Assembly: GCA_039805765.1 (NCBI GenBank)
Contig: JBDLTP010000031.1
Location: 1-10,558 of the forward strand
Source: Pseudomonadota bacterium
Lineage (GTDB): Bacteria; Pseudomonadota; Gammaproteobacteria; Methylococcales; Methylomonadaceae
Length of the DNA: 10,558 nt
Reading direction: 5' to 3'
Below the pieces are notes generated by a model. The model did no database searches, had not been told where the DNA came from, and saw only the letters and a list, made by a program, of their open reading frames with translations. Positions 1,615 to 10,241 of this stretch are shown here, one piece after another (within the stretch, counting starts at the first letter, position 1; every line of letters begins with the position of its first letter). The position numbers were made by a program, and so were the translations under genes.

Positions 1615-1821
1615 GCAAACCAAGTGCCATAAAAAACTCACACACATATAGTAAATAATTAAGTTCAAGTTGATTTTGTTATTTCATATCAATTAGAAAG
1701 AAAGAACAAAGGCAGGGTGATTTGGAAAAATCACCCTTGCTAGCATGCAGCGTAGCTGCTGCTCCTTATTCCAGCAAAACAAGTTCATTCTGATTTGTTA
1801 AAACAACAGCACTTGATTTGT
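1615..1821 (+). repeat. Noncoding element copy A (207 bp): promoter-like box, hairpin, conserved box 2; candidate sRNA or small-ORF locus
   Basis: Box 1 AAAAAACTCACACACATATAGTAAA at 1631-1655 (TATAGT at 1647-1652, possible -35 GTGCCA 17 bp upstream). 9-bp hairpin AGGGTGATT/AATCACCCT at 1714-1737. Box 2 CCTTGCTAGCATGCAGCGTAGCTGCTGCTCCTT at 1735-1767. Ends are GCAAACCAAGTGC (1615-1627) and GCACTTGATTTG (1809-1820), an imperfect inverted repeat. About 97% identical to copy B. Confidence 0.6.
1745..1801 (+). CDS. Candidate small ORF in element A (18 aa, MQRSCCSLFQQNKFILIC)
   Basis: The ATG lies inside conserved box 2. Both A-versus-B substitutions within it (1771 C/T, 1774 G/A) fall on third codon positions and are synonymous. 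There is no recognisable Shine-Dalgarno sequence, so this is very tentative. Confidence 0.25.
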   Translation: MQRSCCSLFQQNKFILIC

Positions 1822-1823
1822 TC

Positions 1824-1866
1824 AAACAGGTCCGCTCTAAATAATTTGAAGTGCTTGATGCTGTTT
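1824..1866 (+). repeat. R-like hybrid site between elements A and B (AAACAGGTC...AAGTGCTTGATGCTGTTT)
   Basis: Shares the first 9 nt (AAACAGGTC, as in R4) and the last 7 nt (GCTGTTT) with the 46-bp family, but the interior is unrelated. Its 3' 18-mer AAGTGCTTGATGCTGTTT recurs at 1570-1587, one tandem period upstream. Confidence 0.4.
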
Positions 1867-1894: not shown

Positions 1895-2101
1895 GCAAAC
1901 CAAGTGCCACAAAAAACTCACACACATATAGTAAATAATTAAGTTCAAGTTGAATTTGTTATTTCATATCAATTAGAAAGAAAGAACAAAGGCAGGGTGA
2001 TTTGGAAAAATCACCCTTGCTAGCATGCAGCGTAGCTGCTGCTCCTTATTTCAACAAAACAAGTTCATTCTGATTTGTTAAAACAACAGCACTTGGTTTG
2101 C
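1895..2101 (+). repeat. Noncoding element copy B (207 bp), tandem to copy A with a 280-bp period
   Basis: Box 1 at 1911-1935, hairpin at 1994-2017, box 2 at 2015-2047. Perfect 13-bp terminal inverted repeat GCAAACCAAGTGC (1895-1907) / GCACTTGGTTTGC (2089-2101). Confidence 0.6.
2025..2081 (+). CDS. Candidate small ORF in element B (18 aa, identical peptide to copy A)
   Basis: Same frame and peptide as 1745-1801 despite two nucleotide differences. No clear RBS. Confidence 0.25.
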   Translation: MQRSCCSLFQQNKFILIC

Positions 2102-2321: not shown

Positions 2322-3740
2322 TTAAGGCGTCCGGTTATATTTCGTTTCCTTTAAAAACCAGAATGGATTGCTTGCTTGTATTGCGCTATCAATTTGCAGT
2401 TTAATTGATGGAGATAATTGATCTTTAAGGACAATAGCGTCATGTACGTTTGCTAGGATCGTCAAATTATTTGTGTTTGCGTAGCTGCGAACAATGTTCA
2501 TTACTTCAGTTTCGGCACTTTGATAAAGATAAGCAAGCAGCTTTAAACGTTTAAAAACGCTTTCTGTATCCCTTAAAAAGGAATAGCTTAATATATAAGG
2601 TTGATTTGCTTTGACCATATTGATAATAGTGTCATTCAATATTTTCTGTTCGGCTACAAAATCAATAATTATTTGAGATTGCAAAAATGTATCGCGTTCA
2701 ACGTCATCTTTAAATATCTCTCCAATAGCTTGCCGGCATTGATTTCCTTGCTGATCAAAATACATGCCCGCTGAGCGCCTTGCACCAAAGTTCAATGCAG
2801 TCATCGCATCCTTAATTAGCCCAATTTGTTTTTCATCGTTGTAAAAGCCATCAGTAAATACATCGGCTCTAATAGCGTCAATCAGCACGGACTTATTGCT
2901 CCAGTATTGATGGCACTGAGGGAAAATGGATTGAATGCTACCGGATAAGTTGTTTTGATTGATGTAATCTTGTGCAAAGCCCAGTTTCCATGCGACTACG
3001 CTACTGCGCATATCGTATTCCCAGCAGTCACCAAGCATCGCTTCACGCAAGTCTTTACGGATATTTTGAACGCTCAAGCCTTCATAATAGGTACGTCCAA
3101 AATCGCTGTGTTTTTTCTTTTGATAATAGATGTTATTTTTCCAACTTGCGGCAGCCGCAATTCGTTTTGCTTGCAAGTAAACGGTTCTATCCTTAATGTT
3201 GAACTTGATATTTTGTGCTAGCAGATTAGCAAAGGGTTGAATGAAATTGTTTACCGACTCAACATCAACCTCGCAGCAATAATAGTCCGTATCAATTTCT
3301 TGCTGGCTGAGCTTATGAAAATTAGGGTGTAATTTGGTAAATGCTGATTGAGGATCAAGTCTATCATCCACATCGGTTATTTTAATGCGTGCAGTGGGTT
3401 TAACAAGCGATGGGCCTTTATGTGATCCGTGTTTTTGACCTTCTTGCTCCTTATGGATTAATTTCAAGTTGTTTTGTTCTAGCCAAGCGTGCAAGCGTAT
3501 AGATTTAGAACCCATTTGCGGTGTGTTGTTTTGTAAGTCATGTAAGTAGATGCCATACAAACCCAAATTGATATTTAATGAGTAATTTCCTCTCAATTCT
3601 GCTTCATCCAGTGCTTGTTCAAGTTTTTTTGTGTAGCTAGCCAAAAGCTTTGCATTTGAACGAACTGCGTTTGGTTTTTTAGGAAATGCAGCTTCTAGTG
3701 CAGCTAGCACGCTTGGATCAATAATTTGGATTTGAATCAT
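2322..3740 (-). CDS. Divergent minimal family-A (Pol I-like) polymerase homolog, with no recognisable exonuclease domain
   Basis: 472 aa. By-eye alignment to Taq/Klenow: FGRTYYEGLSVQNIRKDLREAM ~ TGRLSSSDPNLQNIP...IRRAF; WEYDMRSSVVAW ~ motif A LDYSQIELRVLA; IKDAMTALNFGA ~ motif B RRAAKTINFGVLYG; YQSAETEVMNIV ~ QGTAADLMKLAM; LANVHDAIVL ~ motif C LQVHDELVLE. Motif B to motif C spacing is 124 aa (122 in Taq). The N-terminal ~230 aa are unassignable. Confidence 0.75.
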   Translation of the reverse strand: MIQIQIIDPSVLAALEAAFPKKPNAVRSNAKLLASYTKKLEQALDEAELRGNYSLNINLGLYGIYLHDLQNNTPQMGSKSIRLHAWLEQNNLKLIHKEQEGQKHGSHKGPSLVKPTARIKITDVDDRLDPQSAFTKLHPNFHKLSQQEIDTDYYCCEVDVESVNNFIQPFANLLAQNIKFNIKDRTVYLQAKRIAAAASWKNNIYYQKKKHSDFGRTYYEGLSVQNIRKDLREAMLGDCWEYDMRSSVVAWKLGFAQDYINQNNLSGSIQSIFPQCHQYWSNKSVLIDAIRADVFTDGFYNDEKQIGLIKDAMTALNFGARRSAGMYFDQQGNQCRQAIGEIFKDDVERDTFLQSQIIIDFVAEQKILNDTIINMVKANQPYILSYSFLRDTESVFKRLKLLAYLYQSAETEVMNIVRSYANTNNLTILANVHDAIVLKDQLSPSIKLQIDSAIQASNPFWFLKETKYNRTP

Positions 3741-3808
3741 GCAATACCTAATTGGATATGCTGTAAATGGGGCAAGTCATAGCGACAAGTTTGAGCGTTA
3801 TCGTAATC

Positions 3809-4031
3809 AAAAAACTCACACACATATAGTAAAATTATATTTTCATATAGAAAAATAATGTTGAAATAAGAAAAAATGCAGGTGAATTTCAGAAAGCAAT
3901 GCGAGCTTTAGCGAGTGTTGTTGATGAAATGAGCCTTGCTAGCATGCAGCATAGCTGCTGCTCCTTTCATTGCTTCCATTCAGAAAAGCAATCCAAGTGT
4001 CGTTGTTTTGCCTGCGTTGTTTTTTTTTTTT
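3809..4031 (+). ncRNA. Noncoding element copy C: promoter-like box 1, structured region, box 2, hairpin, T12 (candidate ~195-nt plus-strand transcript)
   Basis: Box 1 is identical to copies A and B at 3809-3833 (TATAGT at 3825-3830). Hairpin ATTTCA/TGAAAT (3886-3891/3925-3930) closed by GG/CC sits just before box 2 (3934-3966), the position held by a hairpin of different sequence in A and B. 7-bp hairpin ATTGCTT/AAGCAAT at 3969-3992. T12 run at 4020-4031. Strand is inferred from the -10 box and the T run, not proven. Confidence 0.4.
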
Positions 4032-4033
4032 AA
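3944..4033 (+). CDS. Candidate small ORF in element C (29 aa, MQHSCCSFHCFHSEKQSKCRCFACVVFFF)
   Basis: Same start and same N-terminus MQ(R/H)SCCS as the ORFs in A and B. It stays open through diverged sequence and stops at TAA 4031-4033, directly abutting the convergent stop of the 354-aa gene. No clear RBS. Confidence 0.2.
   Translation: MQHSCCSFHCFHSEKQSKCRCFACVVFFF
3999..4022 (+). repeat. Truncated R-like remnant (GTCGTTGTT-TTGC-CTGCGTTGTTT)
   Basis: The left 9 nt match R4 positions 7-15 and the right 11 nt match the R4 3' end (CTGCGTTGTTT), as if about 17 internal bp were lost. Same orientation as the family. Confidence 0.35.
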
Positions 4034-5098
4034 TTACCATCCATATACTGCGATTCGCTTTATTGGCTCGCCACGTTTATGCAGTGCAAGTTGTTCTTCA
4101 ATAAACTTCTTTTTAGCTTCCAACTTATGCAATTCAAGTCTTAATTGGAATTCGGGATCAACTGCTAGCAAATTAGCATGCCAATCTTCATCATGTGTTT
4201 TTAAGGGACTTTTATTCACACTATCCATTTTAAGCTTTGCCCATCGTCCATTCGATTCAAGTCGTCTGCGCATACATTGCCACATATAGCGATAATTGAT
4301 GTCAGGTATAGCAACTTTGTCTTTACATGGAAATTTTCCACGTGCGGCGTTTTCCATAATTAAATGAGAGTGATTAAGCATCCGGCAGGTTATATTTTCA
4401 AGTACCTGTGTAGCTTCAACCATATGATGTGGAATCCTTGTGACCGTAATATCTAAATCCGCGTATTTCTCACTCACACCTGCTTTTACGCCAAGTTTCC
4501 ATAGTGATAATTTTGGGTCGCTTGCTTTCATTAATAATAGACGAAGTGTAGTTGTAATTGATTCACAGTGAAAACGCTCACCATGTAAACTGTATTTTGC
4601 TTTAAGTGGCTCAATATAATCATTATCAATTTGTTCACTCACTGCTCTTAATATATCAGCTCGGCTGCCATCTAAAGGGACACCCAATAGCATAAAGCCA
4701 TAATGGTATCGGGCATATTTTTCTAATGCTGCTTTGCAAGCTTCAGTATCTGTAACATGGTCTTGTGGTACATAAGCTAAAGGCGTAGCTTGTAATTTGT
4801 GTACAGGCTCACCAAATAATTTGGCTTTTCCCATAAAGCTTGTCCACCAGATTCTAAATGGGAATTGATAAACATTTCCAAAATCATCATACGTTTTGCG
4901 TACTGCATCAAAGTCATCAGGCAATGCCGTTATTTCTTCTTTTGTTAATCCATCTTTAGCTGTTCGTTCTTTGTGAGCTTGAAAATATATAGGACTTAGG
5001 CGTAGATACTCGTACCAGAGCCTATATGGTTGGCTTCTTTCGTAGTGAAAAGTGCCTTTTAAGAACTCAAAACCCTCAATTTCCCATAATTCAGCCAT
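4034..5098 (-). CDS. Hypothetical protein, 354 aa (orphan; possible helix-turn-helix around LSLWKLGVKAGVSEKY)
   Basis: Long uninterrupted ORF with ordinary amino-acid composition and a weak RBS (GGTAGA). No family recognised from memory. Confidence 0.7.
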   Translation of the reverse strand: MAELWEIEGFEFLKGTFHYERSQPYRLWYEYLRLSPIYFQAHKERTAKDGLTKEEITALPDDFDAVRKTYDDFGNVYQFPFRIWWTSFMGKAKLFGEPVHKLQATPLAYVPQDHVTDTEACKAALEKYARYHYGFMLLGVPLDGSRADILRAVSEQIDNDYIEPLKAKYSLHGERFHCESITTTLRLLLMKASDPKLSLWKLGVKAGVSEKYADLDITVTRIPHHMVEATQVLENITCRMLNHSHLIMENAARGKFPCKDKVAIPDINYRYMWQCMRRRLESNGRWAKLKMDSVNKSPLKTHDEDWHANLLAVDPEFQLRLELHKLEAKKKFIEEQLALHKRGEPIKRIAVYGW

Positions 5099-6270: not shown

Positions 6271-6807
6271 ATGTATAAAATATTTGAAAATATTGAAACT
6301 AATATTATTGATTTTAATGTAGGAAAAATACTCGTCTGTAAAAATGACCCTTTTTTGAGAATTAAAACATTAAAAATGCTTGCGAACTGTCAAAAAATTA
6401 AAGAAATAGAACATAATTGGAATGATTATAGTAATACTGAAGAGTTTAAACAAAATAGATATATCAATCTAGCTTATAGTGCAATTGGTGAAAATGAGAG
6501 TGAAGATTTAAGGATTTTTAAGGTTGATAATTCGGCTACATCACAACAGTTGGTAACGACAAACTATTTCGTTAACGCACTTGAATTTGATGAAAACTCT
6601 TTTAAGCATTTTACACACTGTAAATATTTATTAAATGAATCTCAAAATTTTAAAGAAATATTTAATGATAATTTTGATTGTTCCTATCCTCAATTGGCAA
6701 AGAATAAAAAAAGCGAAATAGAGTATTACTTAGATGATTTTGAAAATAAGCTATGTAATTATTATACACAACAATTGAACAGCTACCATTTGAATAATAA
6801 ATGGTAA
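6271..6807 (+). CDS. Hypothetical protein, 178 aa, AT-rich paralog 1
   Basis: RBS GGAGG 7 nt upstream. Shares a core with the next ORF: FKVDNSATSQQLVTTNYFVNALEFDENSFKHFTHC versus FKVDDSATSKLIIYTGNVIGALEFDEPAFIDFVHC. Both end in KW. Confidence 0.7.
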   Translation: MYKIFENIETNIIDFNVGKILVCKNDPFLRIKTLKMLANCQKIKEIEHNWNDYSNTEEFKQNRYINLAYSAIGENESEDLRIFKVDNSATSQQLVTTNYFVNALEFDENSFKHFTHCKYLLNESQNFKEIFNDNFDCSYPQLAKNKKSEIEYYLDDFENKLCNYYTQQLNSYHLNNKW

Positions 6808-6859: not shown

Positions 6860-7348
6860 ATGAATATTGGAAGAATATTGTTCTTTAAAGATGAAAATAA
6901 CGATATTGATATTAATGAGCTAAGAATAAATCTTTCGTGTAATGAAATAGTAGAGGTTCAGTGGATTAAAAAATATCTTTATCAATGCTGTATTTCAATC
7001 GAATCTATGTACGATTTTGATGATTACAAAGTTTTTAAGGTTGATGATTCTGCAACTTCTAAATTAATAATCTATACAGGAAATGTAATTGGTGCACTTG
7101 AATTTGATGAGCCAGCTTTTATAGATTTCGTGCACTGTATACAGCTAAAAGTAGTTAACAGTTTTTTAAATAATGTTGATAATTATATGGATTTATTACA
7201 GAGTCATCCTTTTGATTCAATCCATGTCGATAGACCTAATGAATTGATAGAAGAGCTTAAAGTGAATTTAGTCAATTTATTTTATACACCAAATTTAATG
7301 GAAGACCCTGATGTACGTTTAAAACGTCATTTAAGTTTAAAATGGTAG
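6860..7348 (+). CDS. Hypothetical protein, 162 aa, AT-rich paralog 2
   Basis: RBS GAGGA upstream. Paralogous to 6271-6807 and followed by a strong terminator. Confidence 0.7.
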   Translation: MNIGRILFFKDENNDIDINELRINLSCNEIVEVQWIKKYLYQCCISIESMYDFDDYKVFKVDDSATSKLIIYTGNVIGALEFDEPAFIDFVHCIQLKVVNSFLNNVDNYMDLLQSHPFDSIHVDRPNELIEELKVNLVNLFYTPNLMEDPDVRLKRHLSLKW

Positions 7349-7501: not shown

Positions 7502-7564
7502 TGTGCCATCTTAAAAATAAATTCCTATTTCTTATTTAAAACAATCAATTACAGAAAAATATTT

Positions 7565-7610
7565 AAACAAGTTGTTGTCGTAACATCGCGTTGTAACATC
7601 GTACTGTTTT
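7565..7610 (+). repeat. 46-bp repeat R5: AAACAAGTTGTTGTCGTAACATCGCGTTGTAACATCGTACTGTTTT
   Basis: Same family and orientation. Confidence 0.85.
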
Positions 7611-7650
7611 ATCGTTTCATCAAAATTACTGCATGCTTTGTTATCATCTC

Positions 7651-7696
7651 AAATAGAGCGTTGTCGTAACGTCGTGTTGTAACATCGCGCTGTTTT
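7651..7696 (+). repeat. 46-bp repeat R6: AAATAGAGCGTTGTCGTAACGTCGTGTTGTAACATCGCGCTGTTTT
   Basis: Same family and orientation. Confidence 0.85.
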
Positions 7697-7770
7697 TGTA
7701 AAATGGGATAATATGTTGAATTTTAAATGGACTTTCTTATTAATAAACAGATAGTTGTATCAAAATGATA

Positions 7771-7816
7771 AAACAGGCCGTTGTCGTAACGTTGTGTTGT
7801 AACATCGTGCTGTTTG
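7771..7816 (+). repeat. 46-bp repeat R7: AAACAGGCCGTTGTCGTAACGTTGTGTTGTAACATCGTGCTGTTTG
   Basis: Same family and orientation. Lies 54 bp from the stop codon of the recombinase gene. A short partial start (AAACAGATAGTTGTATC) lies at 7745-7761. Confidence 0.9.
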
Positions 7817-7828
7817 CATGATGTAACG

Positions 7829-7869: not shown

Positions 7870-8436
7870 TTAGATCAACGCCACCGCTTGACGTTTCATA
7901 TCATCATTTACATCAATATAGCGCTGTGTGGTAGAAATACAAGAATGGCCGGCAAGGGAAGCAAGTACACGAACGCTAACGCCTTTCGCTGCTAACGTGG
8001 TAATGAACGTGCGTCTGCCGGAATGTGAACTTGCGCCATTTAAGCCCGCGCGTTTGTAGAGCCAGAAAAAATATTGCGCAAGCGTATTCGCAGTAAAGCC
8101 TCTGCGTTTTTGCGTAGTGAAAAATGGCTCGGTTGGATTAACGCGTGTTAACTCCTTTGCGTAGCTCTGCAACTCTTTCTGCAAGCGCTCATTTAAAAAG
8201 ACCGTGCGTTCATGTCCGCCTTTCGTTTGCGTAGCCAGTAAACGTATTTCATTTCTAACAATGCCACTTTCGTCAATTACATCGCAATAACGCAGCTGAG
8301 CCACTTCGCCTACACGTAATCCGCCAAGCGTTGTCAGTAAAAACATCGCCCGATTGCGTTTTGCGTGTTTGTCTAAAGCGATCATTGCGAGCACTTGTTT
8401 AATTTCGGGTTGGGTAAGTGTTTTAGCTTGTGACAT
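7870..8436 (-). CDS. Minimal tyrosine recombinase (catalytic domain only, ~188 aa)
   Basis: Catalytic signature present: GGLRVGE (Arg I), HSGRRT (His-x-x-Arg), LAGHS and TTQRY (Tyr nucleophile). Start chosen at MSQAKTL (ATG 8436) because GGAG lies 8 nt upstream; the longest ORF would start at 8487. Confidence 0.85.
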   Translation of the reverse strand: MSQAKTLTQPEIKQVLAMIALDKHAKRNRAMFLLTTLGGLRVGEVAQLRYCDVIDESGIVRNEIRLLATQTKGGHERTVFLNERLQKELQSYAKELTRVNPTEPFFTTQKRRGFTANTLAQYFFWLYKRAGLNGASSHSGRRTFITTLAAKGVSVRVLASLAGHSCISTTQRYIDVNDDMKRQAVALI

Positions 8437-8474
8437 GGTGTTTTGCTCCAATAGATAATAATTTGTGTGCGTAA

Positions 8475-8504
8475 AGTATATTTTCATATCTTCGCAAATA
8501 GCAA
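8475..8504 (-). promoter_or_regulatory. Putative promoter for the 7870-8436 recombinase gene (-35 TTGCTA, 18-bp spacer, -10 TATACT on the minus strand)
   Basis: Hexamers read directly from the reverse complement. Not supported by anything else. Confidence 0.3.
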
Positions 8505-8574: not shown

Positions 8575-9093
8575 CTATTTGGTTTTGAACATTTTTAATG
8601 ACAGAAAAGAATAAGCGGATTTTGAGCTATCTGCGTCTTGCGCGTGTAAATAAGTATTCCGACAAGATTCGCTGCTTGCATCAATGCCTAAGTTTTTAAA
8701 CAACCAAAAGAAATGCTGCGTAAGTGTATTTTGAGAAAATCCGCGTTTGGGTTCTTTTTGAGTATAAAACAATGGCGCTGCTGGATTAAGGTCATTAAGC
8801 GTGGCAATGTAGCGTTGCAGTTCAATTTTAAGTCCTTTGCATATTAAAACGCTGTGGACTTGCTGGTTTTTGGCTTGCTCTGGTCGCAAATGGATTTCAT
8901 CTCGCACCTGCCCACATTCATCAAGTACATCGCCAACAAGTAATGCAGCAGTTTCTTTTACGGAAAGCCCAGCAAGTACCATAATTAAAATCATTGCCCG
9001 ATTGCGCTCTGCGTGTTTAGTGACTGCAATGCTATCAAGTGTCCGCTTGAGATCGTCGCAGGTTAATATTTTGGCTGTTTTGATGTTTTTCAT
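8575..9093 (-). CDS. Tyrosine-recombinase-like paralog, catalytically degenerate and C-terminally truncated (accessory protein or pseudogene)
   Basis: 172 aa, clearly paralogous to the neighbour (KHAERNRAMILIMVLAGLSVKET versus KHAKRNRAMFLLTTLGGLRVGEV; FFWLFKNLG versus FFWLYKRAG). However, Arg I is Ser, HSGRR is ESCRN, and the ORF ends before the GH...Y segment. Good RBS (GGAG). Confidence 0.65.
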   Translation of the reverse strand: MKNIKTAKILTCDDLKRTLDSIAVTKHAERNRAMILIMVLAGLSVKETAALLVGDVLDECGQVRDEIHLRPEQAKNQQVHSVLICKGLKIELQRYIATLNDLNPAAPLFYTQKEPKRGFSQNTLTQHFFWLFKNLGIDASSESCRNTYLHAQDADSSKSAYSFLSLKMFKTK

Positions 9094-9223: not shown

Positions 9224-9297
9224 GCCATTTCCGGTTGTCCAACCAACGCCTCTGAAACTAAAGTTATGTCACATTAACTTAGATCGGAGTACACAAC
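9224..9297 (+). promoter_or_regulatory. Conserved promoter/operator/leader, copy 1 (-35 TTGTCC 9235-9240, 18-bp spacer, -10 TAAAGT 9259-9264, palindrome 9258-9282, RBS GGAG)
   Basis: A 74-bp block repeated in inverted orientation at 10168-10241. The hexamers and palindrome are conserved while the spacer differs. Confidence 0.55.
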
Positions 9298-9738
9298 ATG
9301 GCAACATTACTTAGCTCACTTAAATTAGTTTCAGCAACACGCGACAACAAAGTTTCACCCGTATTGCAGCGCAGACAAAAATTAATCAAAAAAATTGATG
9401 AACAAATGGAGCTGGCGAAGGCGCAAGCAAACGGATCAATTTATAGTCCGACCAAATTCAAAAATATCGTTAATGCTGAAACAGGTACAAATGAGTACAA
9501 GCAAGTACCAAAACGTATTCGCGCTTGGTGGTGGAAAAACGAAGCAGGCAAATTGAATTTGGTTGTGCGTTATGGCGCACGTATTATTGAATTGGGCAAA
9601 GGAAAAAACAGCATTGAACTTGAAAACGAAGCAGCCATTTTGCCAACGCTTGAAGTAATCAAAAAAGCAGTTGAAGCTGGCGAGCTAGATGATGCAATGA
9701 CGGCTGTGAGCAAAGCCGTGTTGTTAAATCTTAACTGA
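9298..9738 (+). CDS. Hypothetical protein, 146 aa (plasmid/ICE-type small conserved protein; family not named)
   Basis: Good RBS, then a strong terminator. RRQKLIKKIDEQ...RAWWWKNEAGKLNLVVRYGARIIELGKGKNSIEL feels familiar from genomic islands, but I cannot name the family reliably. Confidence 0.7.
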   Translation: MATLLSSLKLVSATRDNKVSPVLQRRQKLIKKIDEQMELAKAQANGSIYSPTKFKNIVNAETGTNEYKQVPKRIRAWWWKNEAGKLNLVVRYGARIIELGKGKNSIELENEAAILPTLEVIKKAVEAGELDDAMTAVSKAVLLNLN

Positions 9739-9798: not shown

Positions 9799-10167
9799 TC
9801 AATATTCACGCGGCAACATAATCACCCACATGTCACCTGTGTAACACGCGTAAAGTTTTATCACATCAAGTTCAAAATCCGTGTATTCAATAAATTGCTC
9901 AGCAAGGATGTTGTCGTTCCCATCATCCAATTTCAGCAAAGCTGTGCACGAACTTTCAGAGCGCGAAACAGTTAAATTAGCAACGATGAAAGTTTCCTTT
10001 TGCGTAAACTCCGGCAGGTAACTTGCAATTGCAGTCATAAGCCAATATGCGCCACCTTTGTCAGCAACGAACTTTGCTCCATCCGTTATTACTGTATCAG
10101 GTGTAATGCGATAGTAACGCTCTGTGCCGCTGAAGTTGTTTAATTCATTTACCCATTGTGCTGTCAT
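9799..10167 (-). CDS. Hypothetical protein, 122 aa, resembling the DUF6876-type proteins of plasmids/ICEs
   Basis: FSGTERYYR...TDGAKFVADKGGAYWLMTAI...YTDFEL matches my recollection of that family signature (F-GTE-YYR, TDG, GAYWL). The family name comes from memory and is unverified. Confidence 0.65.
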   Translation of the reverse strand: MTAQWVNELNNFSGTERYYRITPDTVITDGAKFVADKGGAYWLMTAIASYLPEFTQKETFIVANLTVSRSESSCTALLKLDDGNDNILAEQFIEYTDFELDVIKLYACYTGDMWVIMLPREY

Positions 10168-10241
10168 TTTTTGTACTCCGATTAAAGTTAATGTGAAATA
10201 ACTTTAATTTCAGACCGACTTAATGGACAACCGGAAATGGC
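10168..10241 (-). promoter_or_regulatory. Conserved promoter/operator/leader, copy 2 (minus strand: -35 TTGTCC 10230-10225, -10 TAAAGT 10206-10201, perfect palindrome ATTAAAGTTA-N8-TAACTTTAAT 10181-10208)
   Basis: Inverted copy of 9224-9297, positioned identically relative to its start codon. Confidence 0.55.

Follow-up and report, generated by a model that had tools for sequence, protein, structure and literature searches.

A conserved, oriented sequence unit beside putative TV-Pol-type polymerase genes on freshwater bacterial mobile elements

We analyzed a 10,558-nucleotide stretch of DNA (hereafter, the window) from a gammaproteobacterium of the Methylomonadaceae (GenBank assembly GCA_039805765.1, contig JBDLTP010000031.1), and in particular an intergenic element at positions 3809-4031, adjacent to a gene encoding a putative polymerase of 472 amino acids. 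An initial annotation, made from the sequence alone, had described this element as one of three copies of a structured unit and had argued that it serves a function tied to this locus. Our comparison with related loci bears this out: the unit is functional and locus-specific, not a dispersed repeat, and it appears to be a module shared by many freshwater bacterial mobile elements, on which it stands beside genes for TV-Pol-type polymerases. Its anatomy, polarity and neighbors suggest, tentatively, a promoter-type start unit for a short RNA or leader.

Three copies of the unit share two boxes

The three copies in the window (A, B and C; coordinates in Table 1) carry two boxes. Box 1 (AAAAAACTCACACACATATAGTAAA, 25 nt) occurs on the plus strand only, with 0 mismatches among the copies, and box 2 (33 nt, plus strand) varies at a single R position, as initially described; matches to either box numbered 0 in 200 dinucleotide-preserving shuffles of the window. 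Copies A and B are 97% identical and lie in tandem at a spacing of 280 nt. Between A and C, by contrast, the inter-box spacer shows 51% identity, no more than shuffled sequence does (50 +/- 3%); perfect conservation is confined to the boxes, and the sequence around them is otherwise unrelated.

Hairpins of differing sequence had been noted immediately 5' of box 2, and they are present: AGGGTGATT/AATCACCCT in copies A and B, and GAATTTCA/TGAAAT in copy C. The proposed GCAGC-NNN-GCTGC mini-hairpin within box 2 was likewise found, reading GCAGC-RTA-GCTGC. As RNA, the plus strand folds better than shuffled sequence in both copy C (z = -2.8) and copy A (z = -3.3); the minus strand of copy C gave z = -1.9. 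Box 2 is called terminator-like in 3/3 window copies, and in copy C its CTCCTT resembles an anti-Shine-Dalgarno sequence. The reported T12 tract does adjoin the stop codon (4034-4036) of a gene for a 354-amino-acid protein, and a canonical stem directly 5' of the T12 run was not found in the tail of copy C. Upstream of TATAGT, copies A and B have only a weak GTGCCA at -35.

The start of box 1 in copy C lies 68 nt from the ATG of the polymerase gene (3740), in agreement with the earlier estimate of about 70 bp. A minus-strand TATAAT (3839-3834) that had been said to overlap box 1 abuts it instead. The 354-residue gene had been called convergent, which holds relative to the element; that gene and the polymerase gene themselves both lie on the minus strand. 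At least two further copies of box 1 occur on the same contig, about 1 kb past the right end of the window and in the same orientation. These tandem copies (locus L001, 2107-2131 and 2149-2172, plus orientation of the window) differ in kind: one has a beta-type sequence (AAAAAGTCACAGGCATATAGTAAT), and the other is followed by a diverged body and then a diverged box 2 (GCTTGTAGCATGCAGCGTGAGCTGCTGCTTATT). A P4-type integrase gene lies past both.

Box 1 is linked to polymerase genes across diverse hosts

A scan of species-representative genomes yielded 80 loci with polymerase homologs (29-52% identity). The hosts are mostly freshwater Burkholderiales (Limnohabitans, Polynucleobacter, Oxalobacteraceae) and also include Methylococcales, Rhizobiales and Thiosymbion; more than one polymerase locus occurs in several of the genomes. 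The initial annotation had proposed beforehand that absence of the boxes from such loci would count against it. Box 1, scored at no more than 5 mismatches in 24, within 250 nt upstream of the polymerase start and on the opposite strand, was found at 74 of the 82 loci that had enough upstream sequence, at a median distance of 79 nt, and the 3' core of box 2 also recurs. In the 841 kb scanned, the orientation of box 1 relative to the polymerase gene was identical in 101/101 copies.

The sequence logo of box 1 (consensus AAAAAGTCACACGCWTATAGTAAT) forms a 25-nt block of about 40 bits, with sharp edges and flat flanks. Within it TATAGT is invariant, with A at position 2 and T at position 6 as in a -10 hexamer; the logo contains no -35 element (about 0.1 bit there) and no TG extended -10, TATAGT being preceded by GCT or ACA. 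Of the neighboring genes, only the polymerase is found with box 1 at all kinds of locus examined. Loci L005 and L091 possess box 1 and the polymerase but not the short recombinase, DUF6876 or DUF6641 genes found elsewhere, and because they share only the polymerase with the window, it is the only constant partner of box 1. A tie to the 354-residue gene was rejected, as its homologs elsewhere lack box 1; the exception is the homolog at L085, which sits downstream of a unit. Between box 1 and the polymerase start, the left half of box 1 (GTGTGACTTT) recurs as partial, inverted copies at variable spacing (L006, L015, L018, L021, L041, L063, L080 and L088), in L041 directly upstream of the polymerase ribosome-binding site. 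These half-boxes on the polymerase side look like operators.

Other sequence collections gave few hits. A metagenome scan for close relatives yielded only 6 loci, a viral-contig scan for polymerase relatives yielded none, plasmid searches with megablast and tblastn returned nothing, and a phage tblastn search returned two weak matches only. Scanning IMG/VR for box 1 identified one phage contig, without a polymerase nearby. On this contig (L093, IMGVR_UViG_3300023184_000010), a 24/24 consensus box 1 at 663-685 lies between two phage structural-type genes and is antisense to both; the 9.4 kb examined contain no polymerase homolog, and a chance match was estimated to be unlikely. This copy may reflect cross-talk between phage and element.

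The adjacent gene encodes a putative minimal family-A polymerase

The initial annotation had called the adjacent gene polymerase-like, and structural modeling agrees. Neither the 472-residue nor the 354-residue protein has a match in Pfam, PADLOC, NCBIfam or PHROGs, and sequence and profile searches of the PDB gave no true match for either; the more than 400 homologs of the 472-residue protein are all annotated as hypothetical. Its AlphaFold 2 model (predicted local distance difference test score, pLDDT, 91) displays the right-hand family-A fold of thumb, palm and fingers without an exonuclease domain. In Foldseek searches the model matched DNA polymerase I (Pol I), an apicoplast polymerase and Taq in the PDB (E 1e-5, template modeling score 0.36-0.40); in BFVD the best matches were uncharacterized phage proteins (E 4e-28), followed by replication proteins of virophages and nucleocytoplasmic large DNA viruses, including Zamilon (E 1e-11 to 1e-9). 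The modeled protein is best described as a divergent family-A polymerase, nearest in fold to TV-Pol enzymes.

Viral matches such as the Zamilon protein contain the TV-Pol domain, as Iyer, Abhiman and Aravind defined it (PMC2579912). TV-Pols are minimal polymerases, akin to Pol I and T7-like RNA polymerases (RNAPs), that reside on integrase-bearing mobile elements, and a prediction of 2008 made them the primase-polymerases of transposons, virophages and islands (PMC2579912). The sole characterized relative, a distant one, is CCPol-MP of SCCmec, which uses deoxyribonucleoside triphosphates (dNTPs) as a primase and prefers the origin beside its own operon (PMC7581432).

Residues R216, D243, K310 and H433-D434 are invariant among 45 aligned sequences and, with motifs assigned by reading the sequence, are consistent with the family-A catalytic core. 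The residue four positions before K310, where the RxxxK fingers motif has Arg, is not Arg. We take motif A to lack the Glu steric gate (V248) and motif C to read HDA; the latter is HDE in Pol I and HDS in T7 RNAP. Integrases or short tyrosine recombinases are found near the polymerase gene in this contig and at most loci, and tRNA genes lie near the locus in L005 and L045.

A variable body ends in a conserved 3' box

The 70-125 nt located 3' of box 1 fall into about 28 mutually unalignable sequence clusters. Most of these bodies end in a 3' box, [G/C]TCCT[T/C], which is most frequent 90-113 nt past the start of box 1 (background about 1%) and is homologous across subfamilies. By sequence comparison, box 2 of the window (CTTGCTAGCATGCAGCGTAGCTGCTGCTCCTT) is the local version of this 3' box, with the core ..GC..[G/C]TCCTT (compare GATGCTAGAACCCAGCGGTAGCTGGTTCTCTT in L091 and CTTGCTAGTTAGCTGCTCTTCCTT in L015). 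The boxes are conserved as sequence and not merely as structure.

Hairpins recur in the bodies, with compensatory change at a few pairs: one pair is AU, GC or CG, and the arms of the terminal hairpin read GCAGC/GCTGC, GCTGC/GCAGC or CCAGC/GCTGG. L003, L092 and L098 show both one-sided and compensatory changes relative to the body hairpin of copy C. The hairpins of cluster 1 were uninformative because they are nearly invariant or broken. Support for structure across the family is modest. As RNA the 3' box would read YCCUU, like the anti-Shine-Dalgarno end of 16S rRNA, and in cluster 1 the polymerase ribosome-binding site is its complement, one change between the two being compensatory. Searches against Rfam returned nothing for the window at E <= 1, only tRNAs for twelve relatives at gathering score, and only noise for L045 at E <= 10.

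In most relatives the unit precedes a co-oriented gene

In relatives, a co-oriented open reading frame (ORF) lies 110-360 nt past nearly every unit for which enough downstream sequence is available. The commonest, at about 45 loci, encodes a conserved 55-residue protein that we term SP55 (MHTYQASVR..GRSQV..TEVRA..DARWLLWAQYGFHSIQ) and that is always co-oriented with box 1 (for example, L045 5590-5757). The near-palindromic context ATAAGTACTTGATG stands before its start, which has no Shine-Dalgarno sequence, and its 3' end overlaps the end of a convergent DUF6876 gene. Other downstream ORFs encode zeta-toxin-like, glutamine-amidotransferase, nucleotidyltransferase and ribbon-helix-helix-like proteins and, in one locus, a homolog of the 354-residue protein. 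Cargo genes are placed between the unit and SP55. Tandem units are common, with three in L009, 2+2 in L062 and two each in L063, L067 and L080.

The canonical module consists of a short tyrosine recombinase, DUF6876, SP55 and the unit on the opposite strand, the polymerase, and DUF6641; short tyrosine recombinases neighbor 41 loci. No direct repeats were found flanking the polymerase module in canonical loci. Some single genomes carry two or three divergent whole modules of 65-80% nucleotide identity (L067/L069/L077, L050/L054/L059 and L010/L032/L041), with differing unit bodies and with cargo inserted just past the units, an arrangement reminiscent of incompatibility-type diversification.

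The module in the window is rearranged relative to this layout. SP55 is absent, and no co-oriented ORF follows any of the three copies. The initial annotation had offered the 5' untranslated region of a small ORF as one possible role of the element, but the frame of the 44-residue ORF at 3899-4033 is broken by indels in relatives; the unit of most relatives precedes the genuine 55-residue ORF instead. As no co-oriented ORF follows and the 44-residue frame is not conserved, the unit here is non-coding. Copy C is antisense to the intergenic stretch between the co-oriented 354-residue and polymerase genes, which mirrors the canonical arrangement of DUF6876 and the polymerase. A sequence near copies A and B, AAGTGCTTGATG (Table 1), resembles the SP55 start context and may be a relic of it.

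Table 1. The unit, its parts and the adjacent polymerase gene in the window
Feature	Position	Strand	Description
Box 1, copy C	3809-3833	+	TATAGT core at 3825-3830; points away from the polymerase gene
Variable body, copy C	3834-3933	+	AT-rich start, 15% GC over 3834-3879; nested hairpin 3884-3930
Box 2, copy C	3934-3966	+	9-bp hairpin AGCAuGCAGC-aua-GCUGCUGCU at 3941-3962, then CTCCTT at 3961-3966
Tail, copy C	3967-4031	+	Second hairpin at about 3970-3992; T12 run 4020-4031
Copy A	1631-1767	+	Box 1 1631-1655; 9-bp hairpin 1714-1737 in body; box 2 1735-1767
Copy B	1911-2047	+	Box 1 1911-1935; hairpin 1994-2017; box 2 2015-2047; tandem to A
Divergent control region	3741-3808		Between box 1 of copy C and the polymerase start codon
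Polymerase gene	2322-3740	-	Putative 472-residue minimal family-A polymerase, TV-Pol type by fold-level matches
Possible relic AAGTGCTTGATG	1570-1587, repeated 1849-1866	+	Resembles the SP55 start context ATAAGTACTTGATG

A candidate start unit for a short RNA

The reading that we prefer, while rating it at somewhat below an even chance, is that the unit is a promoter-type start unit for a short RNA or leader, read by host RNAP together with an element factor that acts alongside the -10. Copies A-C would then be autonomous, oriented transcription units of integrative elements built around a TV-Pol-type polymerase. Box 1 would provide the start signal, a -10-like TATAGT core set in a 24-25-bp recognition block, and the rest of the block (AAAAAGTCACAC..) would be bound by an element-specific factor, most probably the polymerase or an initiator, because the polymerase is the sole constant companion of box 1. 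Synthesis would head away from the polymerase gene, through the AT-rich, hairpin-prone and fast-diverging body of 70-125 nt, to the conserved 3' box, where a hairpin followed by YCCUU resembles, in the window, an intrinsic terminator. In the window the unit would yield a non-coding RNA about 115-200 nt long. This RNA would be antisense to whatever transcription reads through into the polymerase gene from the 354-residue gene, which lies upstream and is co-oriented. We infer that RNA is produced, with host RNAP as the assumed enzyme, and, from a geometry shared with plasmid counter-transcripts such as CopA, that it tunes expression of the polymerase or replication module. In most relatives the unit would double as promoter and leader of a leftward operon containing cargo and the 55-residue protein.

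The case for box 1 as a start signal directed away from the polymerase gene lies in its strict polarity, its TATAGT core, the AT-rich start and the genes that follow in the same orientation. Conservation of 24 positions across hosts of differing GC content, beside proteins at 33% identity, requires a specific protein reader, which on this evidence would most parsimoniously be the polymerase.

Several observations weigh against such a start unit. With no -35 and no TG extended -10, box 1 should be used poorly by host RNAP alone, and a sigma-70 promoter would not need all 24 positions to be conserved, among them the G of TATAG and the TAAT after it. Copies A and B and those beyond the window are not antisense to the polymerase leader. 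The initial annotation had argued from conserved structure with changed sequence; hairpins do recur with a few covarying pairs, but the mean folding z across 54 non-redundant elements is -0.92 (p ~1e-6) and identical on the opposite strand, RNAalifold detected no consensus structure when the two largest beta clusters were aligned with MAFFT, and covariation is sparse across the family. A general intrinsic terminator was rejected (10/80 elements, the same as on the opposite strand), as was pairing between the 3' box and the polymerase ribosome-binding site, for which own-locus pairs were no better than cross-locus pairs (p = 0.28).

Alternative explanations

It is possible, though unlikely, that box 1 is instead the initiation site of the polymerase itself, the TV-Pol-type enzyme being a promoter-specific single-subunit RNA polymerase or primase. 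It would start at the G of TATAG, copying the plus strand, and would thereby prime replication of the excised element or transcribe the leftward and cargo genes, with the 3' box as a sequence-specific pause, stop or primer-maturation signal. Box 1 does have a T7-class layout: about 24 bp, with an A-rich upstream part, the block GTCACAC, then TATA, G and a conserved initial sequence, and no -35. Its logo, a bounded 25-nt block with TATA directly before G and with TATAG invariant, agrees with the block of about 23 bp that typifies such promoters. The specificity block of SP6 promoters is GTGACAC, close to the GTCACAC of box 1; the A-rich part of box 1 is, however, separated from TATA by a block 3 nt longer than in T7 and SP6 promoters. 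A wider likeness to T7-class promoters and transcription-primed origins (T7 phi1.1A/B, ColE1 RNA II and the mitochondrial light-strand promoter with its conserved sequence blocks) would lie in a sharp block of about 23-24 bp, in TATA then G with conservation of the sequence transcribed first, in tandem copies of strict polarity, in the link with a family-A-like polymerase and in a conserved block about 100 nt downstream. The conserved 7-8-nt box followed by U-rich sequence also resembles T7 class II stop signals. Strict co-occurrence of box 1 with the polymerase, strict polarity, multiple or tandem copies before genes, the absence of box 1 ahead of the polymerase gene in its own orientation, and motifs A and C as read above would all fit, as would the kinship of the predicted primase-polymerase TV-Pols with Pol I and T7-like RNAPs (PMC2579912) and de novo priming by CCPol-MP at the origin beside its operon (PMC7581432). 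On the other side, no TV-Pol is known to transcribe duplex DNA, and no biochemical precedent is known; CCPol-MP favors dNTPs and single-stranded DNA and needs a partner like single-stranded DNA-binding protein (SSB) (PMC7581432), which was not identified at these loci, where the DUF6641 model has no informative fold match. The protein has only 472 residues, lacks a recognizable promoter-binding N-terminal domain, and has F318 in the place of the Tyr with which T7 RNAP selects ribonucleoside triphosphates; TATAGT would serve equally well as a host -10, and several "origins" per element would be unusual. We regard it as rather doubtful, then, that TV-Pol-type proteins of 470-520 residues are promoter-specific single-subunit polymerases (RNA polymerases or sequence-specific primases) with box 1 as their 24-bp promoter. 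If they are, the elements would carry a miniature T7-like transcription or priming system of bacterial integrative elements, in which the 3' box would be a dedicated stop or primer-maturation signal.

It is improbable that the unit acts as DNA only, yielding no functional RNA, whether as protein-binding sites, as recombination joints (for short tyrosine recombinases or homologous cassette exchange), or as titration or partition sites. Conserved boxes around unrelated spacers form a mosaic typical of recombination joints, homology breakpoints of co-resident elements coincide with unit boundaries, cargo is inserted just past units, gene-less tandem arrays occur, folding shows no strand bias, and short tyrosine recombinases are common neighbors. 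However, boxes 1 and 2 are not mutual inverted repeats, box 1 has no core-type dyad, units also occur in loci without short recombinases, the tandem spacing of 150-280 nt is unlike that of iterons, and the steady co-orientation with downstream ORFs at promoter-like distances would be left unexplained. Least probable by far is a protein-coding role, either for the 44-residue ORF on the plus strand or for a polymerase-strand leader peptide whose Shine-Dalgarno sequence would be the complement of the 3' box, AAGGAG. The 44-residue ORF does exist in the window, as does a 14-codon ORF in which AAGGAG on the polymerase strand is followed by ATG, and one beta-proteobacterial cluster has a 24-codon polymerase-strand ORF ending just before box 1. 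Yet indels in L003 and L092 break the 44-residue frame, and nothing equivalent to it exists in copies A and B; most subfamilies lack leader-type ORFs, which lose start or frame within their one cluster, and most of those remaining rely on TTG codons inside the conserved motif itself. A leader peptide as a general feature was rejected on conservation, and judged by sequence, coding explanations are essentially excluded.

Comparison with known systems

The TV-Pols, including SCCmec CCPol-MP, share with the present protein a minimal family-A core lacking an exonuclease domain (PMC2579912, PMC7581432), and they too are carried on integrase-bearing mobile elements. As with CCPol-MP, a specific cis site adjoins the gene; in SCCmec this is the origin and preferred priming site. 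Sequence similarity is, however, undetectable, the relation being at the level of fold only, and the loci studied here have no D5- or Cch-type helicase and no identifiable SSB-like partner. DUF6641 was rejected as an MP/SSB-like partner (model pLDDT 74, no informative fold match). Whereas SCCmec has 5-nt iterons, these loci have one oriented 24-bp box, a hairpin-rich body and a 3' box. Relative to T7 RNAP, the enzyme is about half the size, and this protein family is not known to synthesize RNA.

Plasmid counter-transcripts (R1 CopA, ColE1 RNA I and pMV158 RNA II) are, as predicted for the unit, multi-hairpin RNA genes of about 100 nt in the leader of a replication gene, transcribed away from it, with an upstream gene co-oriented with the replication gene, bodies that diverge between co-resident replicons, and folding of both strands. 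In its leader position on the opposite strand, its size and its stem-loops, the unit agrees with what is expected of such RNAs (about 60-150 nt). Counter-transcripts, however, use ordinary sigma-70 promoters and clear terminators, whereas in the unit conservation is highest in the promoter-type box and the 3' box, additional copies are found away from the polymerase leader, and the unit of relatives runs on into protein-coding genes.

Three further kinds of element were rejected. An integron attC-type site would not fit, as box 1 has no complementarity to box 2 and the unit is not spanned by an inverted repeat of that type; nor would an iteron origin with phased direct repeats of 17-22 bp, as copies of box 1 lie 150-280 nt or several kb apart. 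A non-coding RNA of a retron or defense-associated reverse transcriptase was rejected on the family-A fold of the partner, with no reverse transcriptase, PADLOC or Pfam match. Lacking a -35, a general terminator, iteron phasing and an attC-type dyad, the unit fully corresponds to none of the kinds compared, although its mode of action would be akin to that of a counter-transcript or leader, a phage-type promoter or a transcription-primed origin. Literature searches on DUF6876, DUF6641 and this element found no prior description.

Box 1 probably marks the DNA site at which this little-studied TV-Pol-type polymerase family works. We know of no cognate DNA site for the integrase-linked bacterial TV-Pol forms, and the present analysis supplies a concrete candidate: a 24-bp oriented box of about 40 bits, conserved beside the gene across proteins about 33% identical and from GC-poor gamma- to GC-rich beta-proteobacteria. 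Should the polymerase read the box, it would be smaller by a wide margin than any other promoter-specific single-subunit polymerase and would lend itself readily to orthogonal expression. Should host RNAP read it, the unit would still represent an undescribed class of regulatory RNA or leader, controlling the replication module and cargo of abundant freshwater mobile elements (in Limnohabitans, Polynucleobacter and Methylococcales).

Other features of the window

The left island edge is occupied by a RelB/DinJ-RelE/YafQ toxin-antitoxin pair (277-525 and 525-812). Two adjacent paralogs of 178 and 162 residues (6271-6807 and 6860-7348; about 34% identical, function not assigned) have the DNA repeats D9 and D10 in common. 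A repeat of 45-66 nt, AAACAGGACGTTGTCATAACGTCGTGTTGTAACATCGTGCTGTTT, with 10-nt terminal inverted repeats, is present in seven co-oriented copies clustered at the 3' ends of genes (1232-1297, 1322-1387, 2180-2245, 2255-2320, 7556-7621, 7642-7707 and 7762-7827). Among all loci fetched it was found only on this contig and in a 97% relative, L083; it could be a REP-like (repetitive extragenic palindromic) sequence, a terminator or a recombination site.

The DUF6641 (9298-9738) and DUF6876 (9799-10167) genes are convergent, and their 5' regions and initial codons are duplicated by an inverted repeat of about 83 nt (9224-9306 and 10159-10241) that was not seen in canonical loci. This repeat adjoins two FimB-sized tyrosine recombinase genes, one at 7870-8487 and a truncated paralog at 8575-9093, and may bound an invertible segment.

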